Positions 1,088 through 61,284 of a stretch of 64,000 nt of DNA are shown piece after piece (the stretch's first letter is position 1; each line of letters starts with the position of its first letter). The translations under genes and the position numbers were made by a program. Below the pieces are notes generated by a model. It did no database searches. It worked only from the letters and a program-made list of their open reading frames with translations, and was not told where the DNA came from. Source of the stretch: Octopus sinensis (taxonomy: Eukaryota). The stretch spans positions 16,988,001 through 17,052,000 of the forward strand of contig NC_042999.1 in assembly GCF_006345805.1 (NCBI RefSeq), read 5' to 3'.

Positions 1088-1510
1088 GATTCTGAATACA
1101 TCATAAATAAACTACCAACCTTACGTAGCGAAGACAAACAGACAACTGGTCACTCCGGCCAAGCACATGGAATGTTTATAAATCATATATCCGGTAAATG
1201 GCGGGCTTTTTTACGAACTGCATGTCGGGTAATGAAAAGTATTTCGGAATAAGTTTAACAATTAAGGATAATCTCTTAATAAGGGATCTTAACAAGAAAT
1301 TATCGGGTAGCTAGCGTGAAAACCTCGTAAAAGAAAAGAATTCGAAAATAATTTTTTTCTTTTGAACAAATTAATTATATCTATATTGTATAGAGGGCAT
1401 TATTACACATAAATGCCTCACACTAGGAGGGACAAAGTCATTACTACCAAAATTATACTAATCATACCCAAATGCAGTTTTTCAAAGCAAGACATTAAAA
1501 AAATGAATTT

Positions 1511-1569
1511 AGTTCTGTATCACCGTGATTTCACATTCAACTTTACGTCTAATGATCGTCAGCAGAACT
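1511..1569 (-). ncRNA. Type I hammerhead ribozyme, array unit 4
   Basis: Same sequence as 66-124. Confidence 0.8.
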
Positions 1570-1950
1570 GATTCTGAATACATCATAAATAAACTACAAC
1601 CTTACGTAGCGAAGACAAACAGACAACTGCTCACTCCGGCCAAGCACATGGAATGTTTATAAATCATATATCCGGTAAATGGCGGGCTTTTTTACGAACT
1701 GCATGTCGGGTAATGAAAAGTATTTCGGAATAAGTTTAACAATTAAGGATAATCTCTTAATAAGGGATCTTAACAAGAAATTATCGGGTAGCTAGCGTGA
1801 AAACCTCGTAAAAGAAAAGAATTCGAAAATAATTTTTTTCTTTTGAACAAATTAATTATATCTATATTGTATAGAGGGCATTATTACACATAAATGCCTC
1901 ACACTAGGAGGGACAATGTATATATATATATACATTTATATACATATATA

Positions 1951-4469: not shown

Positions 4470-5520
4470 TAAGGTGGTAAGCTGGCAAAAAAACGTTAGC
4501 ACGCCAGGCAAAATGCTTAGCAGTATTTCGTCTGTTATTACTTTCTGAATTCAAATTCCGCCGAAGTCGACTTTGCCTTTCATCCTTTCGGAATCGATAC
4601 ATTGAGTACCATCTGCATACTGGGGTCAATCTAATCGACTGGCCCCTTCCACCAAAATTTCGGGTCTTGTGGCTTGAGTAAAAAAACAATGTTTACATCC
4701 TATTTAAGGCGGCGAGCTGGCAGAAACGTTAAGCACGCCGGGCGAAATACTTAGCCGTATTTCGGCTGCCGTTACGTTCTGAGTTCAATTACCGCCGAGG
4801 TCGACTTTGCTTTTCATCCTTTCGTGGTCGATATATTAAGTACTAGTTACGCACTGAGGTCGATATAATCGACTTAATCCTTTTGTCTGTCTTTGTCCTC
4901 TGTGTGTTTAGCCCCATGTGGGTAGTAAAGAAATAGATATTTCGTCTGCCGCTTCGTTCTGAGTCCAAATTCCGACAAGGTCGACTTTGCCGTTCATTCT
5001 TTCGGGATCGATTAAATAAGTACCAGTTATGCACTGAGGTCGACATAATCGACTTAATCCGTTTGTCTGTCCTTGTTTGTCCTCTCCGTATTTAGCCCCT
5101 TGTGGGTAGTAAAGAAATAGAAATAGGTATTTCGTCTGTTTTTACGTTGTGAGTTCAAATTCCGCTGAGGTCGACTTTAGCTTTCATAATTTCGGGATCG
5201 ATAAATTGAGTACCAGTTGCATAGTGGGAGTCGATCTAATCGACTGGCCCTGTCTCCCAAAATTTCGGGCCGTGTGCCAAGAGTAGAAAAGAATATTATC
5301 CCAGCTTAAGCAGCGAGCTGGCGGAATCTGTAACACACTGGGAAAAATACTTTGTATCATTTCGTCCGTCTTTACGTTCTGAATTCATCTTCCGCTGAGG
5401 TAGAGTTTGTTTTTCAGACTTTCGCGGTCGATAAAATAAGAACCAGTTGAATTTCAGGGTCGACGTAATCGCCGTACCCCTTTCATTGAAAATACTAGCT
5501 TTGGGCCAAAATTTGAAACC
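4470..5520 (+). mobile_element. Cluster of family A SINEs: monomer, head plus three-body tandem (4707-5296), and an older monomer
   Basis: A-box-like TGGCAGAAACGTTAG, B-box GAGTTCAAATTCC, and repeated body GAGGTCGACTTTGCCTTTCATCCTTTCGGGGTCGATAAATTAAGTACCAG. Confidence 0.9.
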
Positions 5521-7320: not shown

Positions 7321-7510
7321 TATATATATAATGGAAATATAGCATCATAGCATCATAATTTTCAAATATCTGTGTAAAACTGTCAATAGATTGTTAATTT
7401 CAATTTTTATGTTTTTTTTAATATTTATTATTACTGTGGCTTAAAATGTTTTGCTAAAATTGCTCTTTCGTTTCAGATATCATTCGAAAAGTTAATTAAA
7501 ATTCATTAAA

Positions 7511-8585
7511 ATGACAGTTCTATCGGACTTTCAAAGAGGTCAAATTGGTGGTGCTCGTATGGCAGGCGCTAGCGTAACGAAAACAGCCGAAATCTTTGGT
7601 GTATCAAGAATTACTGTCTCGAAAGTAATGACAGCCTTTGAGAAAGAGGGAAGAACCTCTTTGTCGAAACAACTCCGGAAGAAAACCAAAACTTTCAGAT
7701 AGGGACCGTCGGATTCTTACGCAAATTGTTAGAAAGTATCACAAAAGTATAAATCTAAAAATTACTGCAGATCTTAATAATCACTTCGAGAAACCAGTTT
7801 CTACAAAAAAATTTCGCCGGGAACTACACAAAGCCGAATTTAACGGGAGGATTGTAATCAGAAAACCACTACTTTCAAAATCAAACGTTGCAAAGCGATT
7901 AGAGTGGAGTAAAAAGCTACATAATTGGTCCCTAGAGCAGTGGAAGATTGTTATTTTCTTGGACGAGTCATCATTCACCTTATTTCCGACCACCAGCCGA
8001 GTATACGTGTAGAAGCGGCCAAAAAAAGCATTTGACCCAGACTGCCTTCTTCCAGCTGTTAAACAAGAGGAACTGTGATGATCTAGTAGCGCGGGGGGGG
8101 GGGGCATATCTTGGAAATCCGCCAGCCCAGTGGTTTCTCTTCATGGCAGAATTAACAGTCAAGACTATTTAAGCATTTTATCGGATCAAATTCATCCTGT
8201 GGATGCGGATCCGGAGGAAAATGCTATCTTTCAGGATGATAATGCACAATTTCACGGCGATCTTTCGTTACTAGAACACACGACTGCTAGTTACAAACCA
8301 CGTGTGTTTATTTACATTTGTGAAGATGATCGTCGATTTCCGTAAAAAACTTTTATTTTCTTACATATAGGGTTGGGAGGAAATGGGATCTTTTGAAGTT
8401 GGCGGGAATCGGAAGATTTGATATACGTGTGTGCGTGCGTGTGTATGTGTATTTGTGAGAGTGTGTGTGTGTTTGTAGGGTGTGCGAGACAGAAAGTGTG
8501 GTATGTAAGTGAAGTACTTTTGTTAGTGTGTGTGAAGAGACAGAGAGAGAGTAATGTTGCTGCTGTGTGTGTATGTGTGTGTGTG

Positions 8586-21551: not shown

Positions 21552-22852
21552 TTAGCGATAGTCTATTTTTCTTTTCAGCTCCTCATAATCCATTACGGGA
21601 GGTGGGTAATCCATCACCCGACACCTCTTTTCTTCTAGTTTATGCTTTCTGGCGACCTCGATGAAATTGGCGTAACTGTCCGCATGGACTAAAACACCAA
21701 TCTCATCTTCGTCGTACTTGGTTCCCATCCATACTCTTGTTACTCCCTTCACTGTCGATCCTTTTTTCTCTATTTCATAGGAGCTTTTGTATATTACAAA
21801 CGCTCCATAAGACTTAAACGTATCGTTACCTGTGTTTTCCGCTGCGTCTTCCCTCGTCTTCGATCTTTTTCTACTTTTGTGACTGGTAGCTCCTTTGCTC
21901 TCTTCTTTCGATTTTTCCATTTCTCTCTTATTGTTGTCCTTGTTTTCTTTCTCTTTCAGTGTACTGTTTTTTCCTAACTTTTTCATTCTGTTTGAACTTT
22001 CTCTTGTCTCTGTTCTTTCTTTTGCTCTTTTTGTTCCTTTTCTGTTGTCTCTTTACTTTGTGAAAATTCATATAAAGGACACTCAGTCCTTATATGACCT
22101 CTTGTTCCGCACAGATAACAATTGGGTCTCCTTCCTTCGACAATAATGTTTATCGTCGGTTCATTTTCAACTTCGATCTGAAAGGGGATTCTCTCTCTGT
22201 CTTCTGTTGCGGCTGTAAGCCACATTTCGACTCCGAATCCACGCCAGTTCACCGTATTGGTTTCAGTAACTGGACCCAGTTCGGGTTCGTCTTTTGTAGA
22301 CCCTAGAATCGCTGCCACCAGCTATTCTATTTTTATTTCCGGCAGTATACTCGGAATCTTAACCTAGACACTTCTTCTTCCTTTATAAGTGGGTAACATT
22401 GTAAACCTTTCTGTTCTTAAGATAGCGGTGGATAGCGAGGCCGCCACTTCACTTGTGGTAAACCTTACCTCCACCGTACCGAACTTCTTCCCTCTGCCCA
22501 CATAAGTTGCTCTTTCCATTACGTCTCCGATACACTTTTCTATTTCTTCTTCTGATATCCATACTATTTTCTTTGTGTTCATGTATTGAGTTTTATATAT
22601 AATCGTTTTAAGGTTTTTATCTGTTGTTTCTGCTGGAGGGATCAGTTTAATGCTTTCTCCCTCCCTTCTCACGTACTGTTCATATCTCTATATTTCTTCT
22701 TTAACAATTGTAACATTCTTTTTAAAACCCATTGCAGCAATTCTCGCATAGGTATTCCTGAAGGAGGGACGACGTCTTTTCTTTCACCTAAAATGAGAAA
22801 AAAAGAACCGCAAGCAGCAGAAAGCGCCTCGCGCGATTCGTTCTCGTTCCAT
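21552..22852 (-). pseudogene. L1/Tx1-type ORF1p (gag-like RNA-binding protein with CCHC zinc knuckle), disrupted by stops and frameshifts
   Basis: TYARIAAM N-terminal motif, RRM-like GRGKKFGTVEVRF, CYLCGTRGHIRTEC (CX2CX4HX4C), Lys/Glu-rich tail. Confidence 0.85.
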
Positions 22853-22873
22853 TTTTTTCACACAAAAGACATA

Positions 22874-24175
22874 ACGTCTTCACCGCATGAGCTCAAAAAA
22901 CACGTCTTCACCGCATGAGCTCAAAAAACACGTCTTCACCGCATGAGCTCAAAAAACACGTCTTCACCGCATGAGCTCAAAAAACAACATCTCCACCGCA
23001 TGAGCTCAAAAAACATGTCTTCACCGCATGAGCTCAGAAAACACGTCTTCACCGCATGAGCTCTACAAACAAGTCTTCACCGCATGAGCTAAAAAAACAC
23101 TTCTTCACCGCATGAACTCTACAAACACGTCTTCACCGCATGAGCTCAAAAAACACGTCTTCACCGCATGAGCTCACAAACACTTCTTCACCGCATGAGC
23201 TCAAAAAACACTTCTTCACCGCATGAGCTCTACAAACACGTCTTCACCGCATGAGCTCAAAAAACACATCTTCACCGCATGAGCTCAAAAAACACGTCTT
23301 CACCGCATGAGCTCAAAAAACACGTCTTCACCGCATGAGCTCTACAAACACGTCTTCACCGCATGAGCCCAAAAAACACATCTTCACCGCATGAGCTCAA
23401 AAAACATGTCTTCACCGCATGAGCTCAAAAAACACGTCTTCACCGCATGAGCTCAAAAAACACGTCTTCACCGCATGAGCTCAAAAAACACGTCTTCACC
23501 GCATGAGCTCTACAAACAAGTCTTCACCGCATGAGCTAAAAAAACACTTCTTCACCGCATGAACTCTACAAACACGTCTTCACCGCATGAGCTCAAAAAA
23601 CACGTCTTCACCGCATGAGCTCAAGAAACACGTCTTCACCGCATGAGCTCAAGAAACACGTCTTCACCGCATGAGCTCACAAACACTTCTTCACCCGCAT
23701 GAGCTCAAAAAATACTTCTTCACCGCATGAGCTCTACAAACACGTCTTCACCGCATGAGCTCAAAAAACACATCTTCACCGCATGAACTCTACAAACACG
23801 TCTTCACCGCATGAGCTCAAAAAACACGTCTTCACCGCATGAGCTCAAGAAACACGTCTTCACCGCATGAGCTCACAAACACTTCTTCACCGCATGAGTT
23901 CAAAAAACACTTCTTCACCGCATGAGCTCTACAAACACGTCTTCACCGCATGAACTCAAAAAACACATCTTCACCGCATGAGCTCAAAAAACACGTCTTC
24001 ACCGCATGAGCTCAAAAAACACGTCTTCACGGCATGAGCTCAAAAAACACATCTTCACCGCATGAGCTCAAAAAACATGTCTTCACCGCATGAGCTCAAA
24101 AAACACGTCTTCACCGCATGAGCCCAAAAAACACGTCTTCACCGCATGAGCTCAAGAAATACGTCTTCACCGCAT
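22874..24175 (-). repeat. 28-bp minisatellite, about 46 copies (CTTCACCGCATGAGCTCAAAAAACACGT), in the element 5' region
   Basis: 28-bp period (22878, 22906 ...) with recurring variant units and no spacers. Confidence 0.97.
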
Positions 24176-25314
24176 TGTTTTATTATTACCCACAAGGGGC
24201 GAACATAGATGGGACAATACAATCTGATGATGGGGTCAGACACACGAATGGGTTTTTACAATAAATCGAATTTAAAAATTTTCATGAATTACAATAAATG
24301 GACAGAAATCGAATGATGGGACAGACCGGAAGACATTACGGGTGGAGTGGGTGCGGGTTTAGCTCGGACCCCACGAGCCCCGCCTCCCCACTGATACTTT
24401 TGGTTGCGCTTGGTATTACATTTATGTTGTATCTTTCACTCGCAACTTTCGTGCTACATCCTTCCATCGTTCTTCATACACTCTCCTAGTCAGGCATATT
24501 CTCTCCAGCCCTATCTTCCTTTTCAGGTGAAAGATGAAATACTTCATCAAACCAGGGCCGGTGATGAACTTGCCTGACTGTACACCTTTCATTCTCGTCT
24601 TCCATATCACCTCTTTCGCAATTGCTACTACAACGAGAAAACGAAACTTACCTTCATTCACGAGGAAATCCGGTGGGTCAATGTTTGTAATCGACTCAGT
24701 CGACAGCTGTACTCTTCGTGTACCTGACAACAGCTGTTCGGCATAAAACCCACACCTCAGACACGTCCGGACAATGAACAATAGCGTGCGGGACGGTTTC
24801 CCTATCCCGCCCGCATCTTGGACATATCGGACTGTCTTGGCCACCGTGCCTTGCGAGTTTATCCCGAACAGGTAGAGCTCCTCTGTAGCATTGCCATGCC
24901 AGAGACTTCTGGAAGTTGTCCAGTGTCCTCGGCTCGAATGTACGTCGGAACAGACTGGCCAGCTGATTATCGTCGAGACCTAGGGTTTCCCCCAAGGTAT
25001 CTTCACATTCCGCCTCTACCAACCCTCTATAGAAGAATGTGGTGGAACCCCCCACCGCAGGCGTTGCCCGAGCGACGGAATAGCAGGAGAGCCTTGCGAC
25101 ACTCCGTGTACCAAGTACCAAGTTTCGATCTACGATTCAGCCAGGTTTCCCATCCACCGAAACTAGTGAACTTGGGAAACATCAGTTTTGCTAGCGAAGA
25201 CCACACCCGTTCACCATCCAGGTAGAGCCACAGATGTCTTAACCTCAGCGCATGTCTGCGCATCATCAGCCAAGGCATCCCTAGCCCACCCTTTAACGGT
25301 TGTTGACAGCAAGT
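24176..25314 (-). mobile_element. 5'-truncated L1/Tx1-clade LINE (ORF2 C-terminus, 3'UTR, A-rich tail) inserted in the 28-bp array
   Basis: PLKGGLGMP, KSLAWQCYRGALPV, CPRCGRDRETVPHAIVHCP (zf-RVT-like), AKEVIWKTR; frameshifted. Confidence 0.9.
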
Positions 25315-25617
25315 AGAGCTCAAAAAACACATCTTCACCGCATGAGCTCAAAAAACATGTCTTCACCGCATGAGCTCAAAAAACACGTCTTCACCGCATG
25401 AGCTCAAAAAACACGTCTTCACCGCATGAGCTCAAGAAACACGTCTTCACCGCATGAGCTCAAAAACACTTCTTCACCGCATCAGCTCAAAAAACACTTC
25501 TTCACCGCATGAGCTCTACAAACACGTCTTCACCGCATGAGCTCAAAAAACACGTCTTCACCGCATGAGCTCAAAAAACACGTCTTCACCGAATGAGCTC
25601 AAAAAACACGTCTTCAC
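25315..25617 (-). repeat. 28-bp minisatellite continuation, about 11 copies
   Basis: Resumes in register (GAGCTC..) after the LINE insertion. Confidence 0.97.
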
Positions 25618-35164: not shown

Positions 35165-35581
35165 TAGGCGGCGAGCTGGCAGGCATGTTAGCGCGCCGAG
35201 CGAAATGCTTAGCAGTATTTCGTCTGCCGTTACGTTCTGAGTTCAAATTCCACCGAGGTCGACTTTGCCTTTCATCCTTTCGGGATCGATAAATTGAGTA
35301 CTAGTTACGTACTGGGGTCGATATAATTGACTTAATCCGTTTGTCTGTCCTTGTTTGTCTCCTCCGTGTTTAGACTCTTGTGGGTAGTAAAGAAATAGGT
35401 ATTTCACCTGTCGTTACGTTCTGCGTTCAAATTCCGGCGAGGTCGACTTTGCCTTTCATCCTTTCGGGGTCGATTAAATAAAGTACCAGTTACGCACTGA
35501 GGTCGATGTAATCGACTTAATCCCTTTGTCTGTCCTTGTTTGTCGCCTCTATGTTTAGCCCCTTGTGGACAATAAAGAAAT
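35165..35581 (+). mobile_element. Family A SINE tandem dimer with short TSD
   Basis: Second unit restarts at AGGTATTTC; flanks ATATT(T/C)AGAAATTG. Confidence 0.9.
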
Positions 35582-37085
35582 ATATATTCAGAAATTGTTG
35601 CCCATTACTGTATTATCGAACGGGTCAAAGAAATGCCAAAGTTACAGCAGAGAAGTACAACATGAAAGCTATGTTAAGTACCTAGAGTAACCACCTAAAA
35701 CACCAAGAATACTATTTAATAATTATCAATTTAAAACTTTAAGTTGATACTACTTCACTAAAGCTTCAGTTTACATTAGCCCAGAATTTTGAGGCGTACA
35801 CTCGACATCCACCAATTAGATAGACATTTAAACCCCAATGCATGATTATAATGCAGATATAAGATTTTTGATAAAAGTTAACGCAATAAAATCCCCACAA
35901 GTTAGACCTACCATACGACAGCGAAGACCTTTTGCAATGACCAACACGAGAATTATTTCACACAACGCATTCCTCACGTAAATTATTGTAACCCTCAGTT
36001 TGCACGGTACACGTTATTTCATATATATACACATATATATATATATATACATATGTGCGTGTGTGTGCGTATGTATGCTTGTAATCAGTCTCTTTGGCTC
36101 TCATACATTTTCTTCCGCAAAACGCCTAAATTTCCCTATGATTCAGGACATAAAATCCTTTTCCTTTGCTGATACGTAGCTTTTAAGGATAGACGGATAC
36201 CGATACATACTACAAACAGAACGGATGATACCTATATATATATATTTACATATATTCATCTATAAAGCTCTCTCTCTCTCTTTCTGACTCTCTATTTCTC
36301 ACTCTCTCTCTCTCCCCCTGTCTCTCTCTATATGTATATACTATATGTGTGTGCATTTGTGTGCATGTATCTATGTATATGCACGAGAATATATATTTCT
36401 ATTTCTTTTAATCAATTAGATTTAAATTCATTTTTTAAAATATAGTTCATTCCATTTTGTATTAAGGAGGAAATGAAAGGCCACCATTATCTCTATGACG
36501 ATGATATATTACATAGAATATTTTTGGGGGAAATATGGAACATAAAACCTGACTTTTACGTTTACTTTTATTTAAATTAAGTTTTATTCTCATATAAAAC
36601 AGAAAAGTTTCCGCATTGTTGTACTCTGGCTAACTGGCATTGATTACATTACTGTGACATGATTCTCTCCTTATTGAATTTCGTTGAATAATATATTAAC
36701 ATCTCTAGGTATTGTCTGTCACTGACACCAGTAGCTTATTAAATCTAATTATTTTAGTCCCATTCGCTTGTGGAAATATGCTTTAGCTCTATCATAATAT
36801 ATCAACCAAATACATTTTCACATATATCTCACTTTACGCCTGTTTGAAGTTTCCTGTTTGCATGCGTATTTTCTAGGTAGCGTAAACGTATTTAGCATTG
36901 CTGTATCAGATATCTAACTAGTTATAGTTGTATCTAAGTAGTGGGGAGGAATAATCTATTTGCATTAAACCAAATGTAAACCAATGACGTAGTGCTGTCT
37001 TAAAATAAATTGCTCAATATAATCGTACTCCTTGTTCAATTCCTAAATTTACCTCATATGTTAATTTACATATTTGATTATTTTA

Positions 37086-55920: not shown

Positions 55921-56464
55921 CGGAAGTAATATCGTAGAGAAAGCAGTCCTTAGCCACCCGTGCCAGGAATACAGTGAAGATGTCGGCTGCAGGATGTTGG
56001 ATAGCCGTTAAGGTGGAGGAGTACGAGTCTAACGACTTGAAGGTGATATACACACGCGTGCGGTCCCGCCACTCACCACACACACACACGCATATATGAA
56101 TCTCTGTTAAGAGACGAATGCGGTTTGCAAGAACGGGAGTGCATCGAACAAAATGCCTTACTGCACACAACTAATGTCCTTCAACATTCAACATTGAAAT
56201 TCAGACTTTCACTCCTAGTTTCCGACCAGAAATTGCAAGCAGCCTTGGTATAATGATTCTGCCTTTTGTTAATCATAGCAGAACGAATATTTGTATATAC
56301 TTGAATAATCAAGTCACTTCAAAGCAGGTTCAGATGTAATGAGAGGTGGTTGCTGTAGTGTACGTGATGGGTAAAATACCAGCTTCTTGTGTTAAATATA
56401 TATGTGTGTGTGTGTGTGTATGTGTGTATGTGTGTGTGTGGTTACGTGGCATTATATTTAAACA

Positions 56465-57064
56465 AGGCAGTGAGCTGGCAGAATCGTTAGCACACCAGAC
56501 GAAATGCGTAACCGTATTTCGTCTGCCGTTACGTTCTCAGTTCAAATTCCACCGAGGTCGATTTTGCCATTCATCCTTTCGGGGTCGATAAATGAAGTAC
56601 CAGTTACGTACTGGGGTCGATGTAATCGACTTAATCCGTTTGTCTGACCTTGTTTGTCCACTCTATGTTTAGGCCCTTGTAGGTAGTAAAGAAATAGGTA
56701 TTTCGTCTGCCGCTACGTTCTGAGTTCAAATTCCACCGAGGTCGACTTTGCCTTTCATCCTTTGGGGGTCGATAAATTAAGTACCAGTTACGCACTGGGG
56801 TCGATCTAATCAACTTAATACCTATGTCTGTCCTTGTTTGCCCCCTATGTGTTTAGCCCCTTGTGGGTAGTAAAGAAATAGGTATTTCGTCTGCCGCTAC
56901 GTTCTGAGTTCAAATTCCACCGAGGTCGATTTTCCCTTTCATCTTTTCGGGGGCGATAAATTAAGTACCAGTTACGCATTGGGGTCGATATAATCAACTT
57001 AATCCGTTTGTCTGTCCTTGTTTGTCCTCTCTGCGTTTATCCCCTTGTGGATAGTAAAGAAATA
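56465..57064 (+). mobile_element. Family A SINE tandem trimer with 17-bp TSD
   Basis: Units restart at GGTATTTCGTCTGCCG; flanks GGCATTATATTTAAACA / GGTATTATACTTAAACA. Confidence 0.92.
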
Positions 57065-57317
57065 GGTATTATACTTAAACAGACTTCAGTTATTAAGAGC
57101 ATTGTGTTGCCTGAATCAATTGATGTATCAGCAAAATGCTTTGCCATATTTAGTCTTCTTCCTTAATGTTCTGGGTTCAGATTCTGCTGATGTTGACTTT
57201 TGTCTTTCGCCATCCCTGTGGGACCAATAAAATTATGTGGAGGTGAAATATTGGAGTTAATTTAATTAACTTTTCCCTCGCTTAAATTTATGGCTTTTCG
57301 TTTCTATTGGAAAGTTA

Positions 57318-58377: not shown

Positions 58378-58413
<36 letters not shown>

Positions 58414-58427
58414 TAATTAATTAATTA

Positions 58428-58657
58428 ATAGTAATGATGGTTTCAAATTTTTGACAGGTGGTCGGTAAGTTCGGGAGGTTGGGGGTTGGGTCGATTACCA
58501 TCGGCCCCGGTGCACAGCTGGTGCTTTATTTTGTCGACCCCGAAGGGATAAAGGGCGGGGTCGGCCTTGGCGCAGTTTGGGCTCCAGACGTGGAGACGGA
58601 AGAGATGTCACTAAGCGTGCCGGCGATTTCGACAGCTTGCCGCCCTAGTAGTAGTGG
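58428..58657 (-). mobile_element. Family A SINE with clustered A>G hypermutation on the + (antisense) strand
   Basis: Example: CGAAGGGATAAAGGGCGGGGTCGGCC versus consensus CGAAAGGATGAAAGGCAAAGTCGACC at 59774-59799. Confidence 0.85.
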
Positions 58658-59291
58658 CACATTGGACAAAATACTTGGTCACATTTCACGTTTCCATTTT
58701 AAGATGACAATGTGTCCATACCTGGCGCACTGCATTCTGGGACTCTATTGTTTCGACACGAGCCTCGTCAACGAAGATTAGCCGAAATTCTGAGCCTAAA
58801 CGAAACCGCTGGCACTTTTTATACTTTCATTTTACAAATTATTTTCTGATCGGTGTTATATCTGCCAATCGATAAAAATTAATCATAGCAGATTAATCTG
58901 GAATGTTTTACTTACAAACCAGTCGAAAGACTCACTAGATGGAAATGAAAATTTTACAGAAATATTTGGAAATGTCTCAACATACTTTCCACGATACGTG
59001 GCAATTATTCTATCTTTCTAATGAATATAATTATGCGTTCGATGAATTGTCTCTGCTTAATTACTTCTTTAAAAAAATGCTAGTTTTTTTTTGATAATAT
59101 ATAGGGAGAACTAAAATACAAATTATAAAACAATCAACAAATCAGAGATAATTATATCCCAGAGAATAGTAATTTTTTTTTAAGTTGAAAAGAGAAAACA
59201 AATCTTTGGAATTTGCTTAGAGATTGAGTTGATAATTAGAGTTGGATGAAATGCTTTCAAATTTTTATATTCATTTTGCATTTTAGTGCCA

Positions 59292-59891
59292 TTCAAATTT
59301 AAGCACAACACCAGCAATTTTCAATGAGGGCATAAGTCGATTAATTGACGCCAATGCTCAAATAGTTTCATATGGACACTGATGGAATGAAAAGTCGACC
59401 TCGGCAGAATTTGAACTCAGAACGTAAAGACGTAGGAAATGCCACTAAGCATTACGCGGCGTACTATCGATTCTTATTTCGTTACTGCCCACAAGGGGAT
59501 AAACATTGAGGGGACAAACAAGGACAGACAAAGGGATTAAGCCGATTAGATCGACCCCAGTGCGTAACTGGAACTTAATCTATCGCCTCCGAAAGGAGAA
59601 AAAGCAAAGACGAACTCGACGGAATTTGAACTCAGAACGTTGCATCAGACGAAATACCTATTTCTTTACTACTCACACGGGGCTAAACACAGAGAGAACA
59701 AACAAGGACTGACAAACGGATTATGTTGATTACATCGACTCCAGAGCGTAACTGGTACTTAATTTATCGACCCCGAAAGGATGAAAGGCAAAGTCGACCT
59801 CGGCGGAATTTGAACTCAGAACGTTGCGGCAGACGAAACACTGCTAAGCATTTCGCTCGGCGTGATAACGTTTCTGCCAACTCGCTGCCTT
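59292..59891 (-). mobile_element. Family A SINEs: old monomer plus younger tandem dimer
   Basis: Consensus match. Confidence 0.88.
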
Positions 59892-60769: not shown

Positions 60770-61284
60770 TTGGGTTGTCCGGAAAAATTCGTGCCGATTT
60801 ATTGTAGCTTACCTTTTGACTTATTTTAGAACATGGTTGAGTCCATAAAATAGGATTTGACTACACCTCCATTTAGAGCACAGTTGAAGCTATATTTTCG
60901 TGGAAGAAGATTTATGTTCCTAGAACCTGTGTTAATTCCGTAATCCTTTAAAATGGAAGATAAGGAAGTTCGTTTTCGGTACTTGATGCTTTTCTTTTTC
61001 CGTAAAGGGAAAATGCCTCAGAAGCAACCAAAGAAATATGCGCAGTTTACGGCAATGTTTCTTTATCCGAAAGAACTGTACGGAAGTGGTTCGCAAGGTT
61101 TCGAACTGGAGATTGTAACCTTATTGTTAAAGAGTGATCAAGCAGAAAATCCACTACAGATGATGACCAAATCAAGCCATTAATTGAGAATAACCTACAG
61201 TGCACAACTCGAGAATTGGCAGAAAGTATTTATTGACCTTTCTCTTTCCTTTAAAAATCGGCACGAACTTTCCGGACAGCCCAA
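60770..61284 (+). mobile_element. Non-autonomous mariner (both TIRs plus HTH-coding 5' part)
   Basis: TTGGGTTGTCCGGAAA..TTCGTGCCGATTT / AAATCGGCACGAACTTTCCGGACAGCCCAA-TA; MEDKEVRFRYLMLFFFRKG / ICAVYG..SERTVRKWFARFRTGD. Confidence 0.9.

Follow-up and report, generated by a model that had tools for sequence, protein, structure and literature searches.

RNA editing is normally not inherited. A single SINE copy in the 64,000-nt stretch of Octopus sinensis DNA analysed here (the window) raises the question of whether edited bases can enter the germline, and by which route. A preliminary description, made by eye from the letters, had proposed that this copy is fossilised with dense A-to-G changes on the strand opposite the element's own RNA, in the manner of ADAR hyper-editing. 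Scars that editing leaves in DNA are known in retroviruses, where the virus's own RNA strand is affected, and from cytidine deaminases acting on retroelement cDNA. A dense ADAR-like scar opposite the RNA strand of a SINE needs either RNA-templated overwriting of the genome or ADAR acting on DNA, both of which have long been debated. We found that the cluster is real, heritable, and recurrent but rare in the genome, and that it is probably an ADAR scar.

The host genome (2.72 Gb) is packed with the SINE family to which the copy belongs, with several hundred thousand copies. The elements are short, non-coding and of very high copy number (88 copies in the surrounding 264 kb), and target-site duplications were seen by eye at two loci (L027 and L071), which are properties of tRNA-derived SINEs. 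We take the head of the element to be tRNA-like, and the family presumably resembles the octopus tRNA-derived SINEs already described; ARAGORN predicted no tRNA genes, and Rfam gave no match at the focal copy. The names C1 and C2 are given here to two tail types of the family. The minus strand was taken as the sense strand of the focal element, on the basis of the presumed tRNA-like head and of truncated copies (L004, L066, and L068) that retain the tail side. The copy and its changed tract are as follows.

58439..58646, minus strand: full-length C1-subfamily SINE copy (about 214 nt), head at 58646 and tail end at 58439
58458..58623, plus strand: A>G tract, 25 sites in a transition-tolerant alignment, or 22 of 49 A after masking of polymorphic columns

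The A>G sites are 58458, 58464, 58481, 58488, 58489, 58504, 58509, 58517, 58523, 58533, 58545, 58553, 58557, 58558, 58559, 58564, 58575, 58580, 58581, 58587, 58592, 58593, 58604, 58622, and 58623. The copy also has one 12-nt internal deletion and a few small insertions. The deletion (noted at 58605-58622) recurs in the unrelated copies L062-L064, apparently between short direct matches.

Several other repeats were observed in the window. The C2 SINE often occurs in head-less tandem units of about 184 nt (4757-5218, 35215-35582, 56514-57070, and 59475-59838). At 21555-25617, minus-strand frames include a zinc knuckle (21986-22321) and, at 24699-25136, an RT-associated zinc-binding domain. These frames surround two arrays built from a 28-nt unit (46.5 and 10.8 copies), and together they form a relic of LINE-like type that has tandem arrays inside it. 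A 481-nt unit is repeated at least four times at 1-1916 (99% identity), and the series runs off the window start. Helix-turn-helix fragments of Mariner type and Tc1-like type are located at 61006-61134 and 7496-7699, respectively.

As the reference for substitution counts, we used the majority sequence of 29 C1 copies (30 were fetched, L031-L060, and the misaligned L059 was left out). In a neutral alignment, 21 of the 52 A residues (40%) are changed to G in the focal copy, against 63 of 1619 (3.9%) in the sisters. T>C was found at 3 of 45 positions (Fisher p 1.1e-4), A>C at none of 52, and the other ten substitution classes were near the sister rates. The transition-tolerant alignment gave A>G at 25 of 55 positions. 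With 11 polymorphic columns masked, the remaining changes (22/49) have p 1.4e-19 against a 3.5% background from 210 copies, and those on the opposite strand (3/40) have p 0.16. The focal copy is the top A>G outlier among 306 aligned copies. It thus aged normally and, in addition, took up a burst of one type of change confined to one strand. A regional effect was also considered and ruled out, as the focal copy is the only one of the 88 copies in the surrounding 264 kb with A>G of 20% or more.

The cluster on the plus strand noticed in the preliminary description was thus borne out. Its companion statement, that other substitutions are fewer than half as many, holds approximately for the core considered there (about half, as read from the alignment), but in the whole copy the two counts are equal (21 and 21). 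The sister copies used for that comparison are C2 elements, a different subfamily at the tail end; the excess still holds against the C1 reference.

Three trivial sources of such a pattern are an unrecognised G-rich subfamily, GC-biased conversion, and chance. We found no sibling sharing the Gs; the next best match, among the 40 of 892 candidates that were scored, is 73% identical, and the variants do not define a subfamily. The normal T>C count argues against GC-biased conversion, and a p value of 1e-19 survives correction for a million copies. An unedited parent copy was likewise not found, either by the same DNA search (40 of 892 candidates scored) or with a deletion-junction pattern, which in the genome matched four other copies with the deletion motif, none of them with the flanks of the focal copy.

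The fourth trivial source is an artefact of assembly or RNA-guided polishing. Clustered mismatch artefacts do enter assemblies, as noted in the available part of PMC2873906. Part of the region 58415-59330 is present in 20 of 24 listed sequencing runs, and six have at least half of the sampled words; none of these runs is on record as RNA, which has no bearing on whether the copy is expressed. We aligned contigs of four runs to the region. In run X5 (organism D, study P4, type unrecorded), one contig covers 58415-58747 with 2 other letters, and in run X4 (organism C, study P3, guessed to be DNA), one contig covers 58415-58584 with 3 other letters; no G>A place inside the copy is listed for either. 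Three further runs, from studies P1 and P2, have 80-91% of the sampled words, which is above what the flank alone could give. X4 carries the ancestral base at 58457 and flank alleles common to outgroups, and thus represents an independent lineage with the same Gs. Since the P3 and P4 contigs carry the Gs alongside variants of their own, an assembly or polishing error is very unlikely, even though the run types are guesses and one run may be the source sample. The Gs are therefore in DNA, as far as these run types go, and the pattern is not live RNA editing, in which the genome would have A and the RNA G; the assembly, X4, and X5 all have G. Taken together, we regard an artefact, a subfamily, GC-biased conversion, or chance as an exceedingly improbable origin of the cluster.

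Two observations were made on the depth and the letters of these contigs. In X4, the contig over the changed copy (58415-58584) has a depth of 24 and the flank contig one of 57. The second haplotype may be very different at the copy (unedited, empty, or diverged), or GC bias may be responsible. No such drop is seen in X5 (3.8 versus 4.6). X4 also has two further A>G places, possibly extra Gs in the copy.

We then consider where the tract ends. The features that flank the copy are as follows.

58412..58438, plus strand: AT-rich tail and microsatellite edge; GAT units beside the family end are common in sisters
58647..58658, plus strand: triplet tract beside the SINE head, possibly a converted (TAA)n but equivocal, as a similar tract lies beside an ordinary copy
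58655..58700, plus strand: head fragment from this SINE family, decayed and inverted relative to the focal copy, so that the two heads face each other
58691..59330, no strand assigned: right flank of unique sequence, with orthologues in organisms E and F at 6-7% divergence

The triplet tracts on either side had been described as converted as well. Among 19 head-side tracts (the focal one included), however, GAT accounts for 17 of 96 units, and six TAG-type units stand in the tract of L035, an ordinary copy. As GAT units are common beside sister copies, the tracts provide no evidence of flank conversion. The unique right flank, compared with X20, has G>A at 4, T>C at 7, C>T at 4, and A>G at 2 places; there is no excess of genome G versus outgroup A, and thus the A>G tract stops short of it.

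In organisms E and F, no long contig spans the copy, and lack of cover in X4, X12, and X20 is not evidence of absence. A 2,588-nt contig of organism F (X20 record 15) aligns to the right of 58691 and nowhere else, which leaves 1,848 nt of it unaligned. The site in organism F therefore differs in structure (empty, unedited, or rearranged). The focal copy has 9 transversions in about 200 nt. This is roughly double what has accumulated per lineage since the split from F (26 in about 640 nt separate the two) and suggests that the SINE predates this split. The stop of the alignment at 58691 also fits a later insertion.

These flanks bear on one alternative, in which 58439-58690 (antisense SINE, triplet tract, and head fragment) is a retro-copied piece of edited host RNA, inserted after the split from F, with an unedited parent elsewhere. 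The head fragment is a genuine similarity (score 47.5 versus 31 for the best of 2000 shuffles), it contains two A>G in T-A-G context, and it fades near 58690, where the F flank begins to align; the copy also looks older than the split. Against this block are the missing parent (the 73% match and the four deletion copies with other flanks mentioned above), the absence of a visible poly(A) or clear duplication in the sequence, and the ordinary SINE edges of the changed copy L027, where a perfect duplication of 15 nt, judged by eye, borders the SINE on both sides, in the manner of an ordinary insertion. We consider such a retro-copied block very unlikely.

To look at other copies, the genome was searched with short exact patterns that force three A>G changes in the SINE core (three antisense and three sense patterns). 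Fourteen distinct other copies were obtained, 5 antisense and 9 sense. One antisense pattern gave no matches; the focal copy itself could not match that pattern owing to a one-base insertion. After removal of the forced sites, 7 of the 14 exceed the 3.5% background (p<0.0036). Four of them are antisense (L066, 7/19; L068, 8/30; L069, 15/53; and L095, 6/42, an old copy with both strands raised) and three are sense (L073, 6/40; L074, 6/40; and L138, 9/39). The other strand is clean or nearly so in L073 (0/68) and L138 (2/65). The other seven, L098, L070, L071, L072, L099, L136, and L137, have no excess beyond the forced sites; two of these, L070 and L072, combine the forced sense triple with an antisense A>G excess (5/48 and 6/42; at about 1400-1620 in the loci). 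Two more antisense-changed copies, L004 (9/42) and L027 (10/45), were found by likeness to the focal copy and are thus biased picks.

The changed tracts are confined to the SINE and often take up only part of it. In L073, the changes are limited to the head half, and the repeats and microsatellites next to L068, L069, and L074 show no change. Large deletions are not clearly enriched in changed copies (2/7 versus 29/230). L069 (about 1370-1800, minus strand) is a young, heavily changed C2 copy, the head of which is replaced or interrupted by an unchanged repeat of another family.

As a control, a G>A triple gave 61 matches where 54-64 were expected; 30 of these were examined and proved to be decayed copies in which C>T was raised too, which also speaks against artefact or chance as the source of the A>G copies. 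The expected counts, from a 530-kb sample, fitted this control only; for the other patterns, expected versus found were 1.6 versus 4, 0.01-0.27 versus 5, 0.5-1.4 versus 4, 86-95 versus 1, 0.6-11 versus 0, and 19-32 versus 6, and we did not use pattern counts as evidence. Judging from 43 matches in 530 kb, such a pattern can reach about 220,000 copies. From the four antisense matches, and assuming that 5-15% of changed copies carry a given triple, changed copies amount to roughly 1-4 per 10,000. In a second SINE family, there were no antisense matches, and one of six sense matches showed an excess (p 0.011). The copies L130-L135 of that family have three A>G in one short stem near the head (about 1500-1525), and the rest is mostly clean.

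Two parts of the preliminary description are not supported by this survey. The antisense, or cDNA, strand had been taken as the defining feature; the focal copy fits a cDNA-strand target, but L073, L074, and L138 are changed on the other strand. The process had also been likened to an adenosine-based counterpart of APOBEC restriction of retroelements, and the rarity of changed copies argues against a restriction system.

The bases next to the changed sites bear on the enzyme. We masked the 11 columns (decayed CpG or polymorphic), permuted within copies, and relied on unselected pattern matches rather than on pools of copies picked for enrichment. In the five other antisense matches, with the focal copy excluded, A is changed after T at 9/25, after A at 16/68, after C at 7/38, and after G at 5/56 sites; with a 3' G the count is 12/35, and with a 3' T it is 4/37. 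The permutation p values are 0.005 (5' G low) and 0.02 (3' G high), and for all 14 matches plus the focal copy they are 0.049 and 0.002. Ordinary copies have little or no such bias on the strand equivalent to the plus strand here (antisense). In the focal copy alone (5' G 5/14, T 4/7, A 10/19, and C 3/9), the bias is not significant (5' G 5/14 versus 17/35, p 0.53; 3' G p 0.09). The nine sense matches pooled also have none (p 0.81 for 5' G and 0.17 for 3' G); only three of the nine are enriched, and the power is low. The ADAR neighbour bias is seen in the pooled antisense copies and does not reach significance in the focal copy alone or in the sense pool.

Polymerase eta is known to favour A after A or T, and a 3' G enrichment is possible with polymerases through next-nucleotide or slippage effects. 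In metazoan ADAR motifs, as described in the accessible parts of PMC9989829 and PMC3113232, 5' U and A are favoured and G is disfavoured, and 3' G is favoured and U disfavoured in most species. The order in the pooled antisense copies matches this motif and thus supports ADAR; it falls short of proof because of the overlap with polymerase eta. At hyper-edited sites of invertebrates including octopus, it is downstream A rather than G that is enriched, and the G preference is weaker in octopus (PMC5625713, in the part available).

This overlap makes polymerase errors a competing source. A reverse transcriptase or an error-prone polymerase of the eta or iota type could have inserted G across from U or T within a single patch, for instance when drawing on a dATP-poor, dGTP-rich pool, with no deaminase involved. 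Such errors would yield one-strand A>G, runs like AAA>GGG, denser change on the cDNA strand, and mixed-strand copies, and the several small indels of the focal copy fit as well. Sense-only copies such as L073 and L138, however, are hard to obtain from a pool imbalance at insertion. In addition, A after C is intermediate (7/38) and A after G least changed, as for ADAR; A>C is not in excess; the unique flank is unchanged; and a change of 45% is far above eta-type error rates. We regard polymerase errors as distinctly unlikely.

Hyper-editing of RNA would need a duplex. A lone focal copy is predicted to fold into helices of at most 7-8 bp, which by this model are too short for hyper-editing. The possible partners and the neighbours are as follows.

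56464..57064, plus strand: three tandem young C2 SINE units, inverted relative to the focal copy; candidate duplex partner on plus-strand RNA
57096..57313, plus strand: older inverted C1 copy; second candidate partner, with an ordinary decay spectrum
59291..59891, minus strand: neighbouring SINE copies oriented as the focal copy; A>G 1/53, 0/50, and 0/56

The best inverted partner is the unit at 56464-56654, with a predicted duplex of about -209 kcal/mol. The candidates lie 1.4-2 kb from the focal copy; as inverted copies are common throughout the genome, their presence is weak evidence. The three units at 56464-57064 themselves have no A>G or T>C (0/56 and 0/39 in one, 0/50 and 0/25 in each of the other two). 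No host gene, host exon, or plus-strand transcript was found around the focal copy when 150 of 276 filtered candidate frames in 264 kb were scanned with Pfam; apart from transposon domains, the scan returned a few matches below threshold.

Ordinary retrotransposition of edited SINE RNA can yield sense-strand A>G only. Antisense-changed copies with normal edges thus leave overwriting, cDNA deamination, and polymerase errors as the remaining routes. We prefer the first of these, with a probability of roughly one half: ADAR hyper-edited a double-stranded RNA that included the SINE in reverse, and a reverse transcriptase copied the edited RNA over the resident germline copy. An ADAR origin by any route is very probable. 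The starting point is what was observed: a one-strand A>G burst over normal ageing, fixed in DNA and peculiar to this copy, with rare repeats in other copies on either strand. What we infer beyond this are the enzyme, the duplex, and the write-back. The neighbour bias and the density point to A-to-I editing of a long RNA duplex, the partner of which would be an inverted copy nearby or another transcript, as the lone copy could not supply one. A LINE-type reverse transcriptase or a repair polymerase, engaged where a homologous copy is broken, would then take the RNA as its template and read inosine as G. The expected outcome would be a tract limited to the SINE, on either strand, of variable length, and with ordinary SINE edges.

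Overwriting by edited RNA fits the density, the bias, both orientations at similar frequency, the partial tracts, and the confinement to the SINE; since the route is blind to SINE orientation, it accounts for changes on both strands. Hyper-edited RNA is very abundant in octopus (PMC5625713, in the part available), and about 50% is a typical density for the RNA hyper-editing recorded in retroviruses (available part of PMC12925331). Against overwriting, the nearby inverted copies are unchanged, so that a write-back would have been restricted to one arm. An unedited allele or orthologue did not turn up, X4 and X5 having the Gs and organism F aligning only from 58691. L070 and L072 are changed on both strands, which a single edited RNA strand does not give. 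Also to be counted against it are the non-significant neighbour bias of the focal copy and of the sense pool, the downstream A enrichment at invertebrate hyper-edited sites, the lack of a host gene or plus-strand transcript in the frames scanned, the age and the two raised strands of L095, and the outcome in the second SINE family. We propose that the process is a rare mutational accident and not a defence system.

In the cDNA route, ADAR would have acted on dA of the nascent cDNA while that strand was still in hybrid with the SINE RNA, either in an R-loop or in the course of target-primed reverse transcription, and the change would date from insertion; the sense cases would be SINE RNA edited before copying. 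This would explain the confinement to the SINE, the ordinary edges and duplication of L027, the ADAR-like bias, and the mixed-strand copies L070 and L072, and the site cannot be aligned in organism F. In a matched 90-bp hybrid, however, wild-type ADAR2 edited three sites only, far below 45%, and efficient editing needed dA-C mismatches or a mutant enzyme, as described in the part of PMC5389660 available. The occurrence of such editing in retroelement hybrids is stated as unknown in the available text of PMC12925331, and the transversion count suggests that the SINE predates the split from F. Deamination of the cDNA strand is therefore unlikely in our view.

The two routes offered in the preliminary description fare unequally. 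An edited antisense or host RNA entering as a new insertion is weakened by the lack of an unedited parent and by the ordinary edges of L027, and write-back in place is the form of that route that we prefer; deamination of the DNA strand is weakened by the sparse editing in matched hybrids (PMC5389660, in the part available). What stood of the interpretation as a whole is a real, strand-pure cluster in DNA with an ADAR-like bias in the pooled antisense copies; the claims on strand, flanks, and restriction were not supported.

We regard as evenly balanced the general statement that, in the germline of this animal, ADAR-edited transcripts, or ADAR on RNA:DNA hybrids, repeatedly overwrite resident DNA and leave one-strand A>G scars, numbering from tens to a few hundred, in SINEs of either orientation. 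If true, such overwriting would amount to a fossil record, open to dating, of RNA editing that became heritable by a path other than normal retrotransposition. The process is rare, and its evolutionary weight is probably small; what it would offer is evidence for the route. The family has several hundred thousand copies, and genomes of relatives are at hand, which makes the question directly testable: at orthologous sites, a change made at insertion can be told from one made in place, and the strand of host genes shows whether RNA or DNA was the edited molecule.

No report of genome-fixed A>G clusters in SINEs was found in the literature searched, which consisted mostly of open-access main texts. 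APOBEC DNA editing of retrotransposons in genomes was reportedly described by Carmi et al. in 2011. In that system, as far as the available parts of PMC4866542 and PMC2873906 describe it, single hypermutated copies likewise stand out from a subfamily majority, strand-biased and fixed in the genome. The change there is C-to-U on cDNA, read as G>A clusters on the element sense strand, mainly in LTR elements, whereas here it is A>G, on both strands across copies, and very rare. The word 'ADAR' does not occur in the available main text of PMC4866542.

ADAR hyper-edited RNA in repeats resembles the focal copy in its dense one-strand A>G, in the neighbour preferences (5' G disfavoured, U or A favoured; 3' G favoured, U disfavoured), and in affecting either repeat orientation, octopus being extreme; those clusters are differences between RNA and DNA, whereas the focal Gs are in the genome and common to samples (PMC5625713 and PMC9989829, in the parts available). 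ADAR acting on the DNA of RNA:DNA hybrids would give A>G opposite the SINE RNA with ADAR neighbour preferences, but what the available part of PMC5389660 describes is three sites in a matched 90-bp hybrid in vitro, and here the tract is dense.

ADAR-type hypermutation of retroviruses (Rous-associated virus, avian leukosis virus, HTLV-2, and STLV-3) is also similar, in that as much as about half of the A residues have turned into G over a limited stretch of a reverse-transcribed element. Those viruses are infectious and their own RNA is the template; here the element is a short, non-coding, high-copy germline SINE, and the change is on the strand opposite the element RNA (PMC12925331, in the part available). 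In the localized retroprocessing of plant mitochondria, edited RNA is reverse transcribed, replaces part of the resident sequence, and fixes edited bases in partial tracts; there the editing is C-to-U, in organellar genes, and coupled to intron loss, and replacement was inferred from phylogeny, whereas here the in-place step is only proposed (available part of PMC4987113). The focal copy thus belongs to none of these classes as defined, whether ADAR-hypermutated retroviruses, plant retroprocessing, or APOBEC-edited LTR elements.
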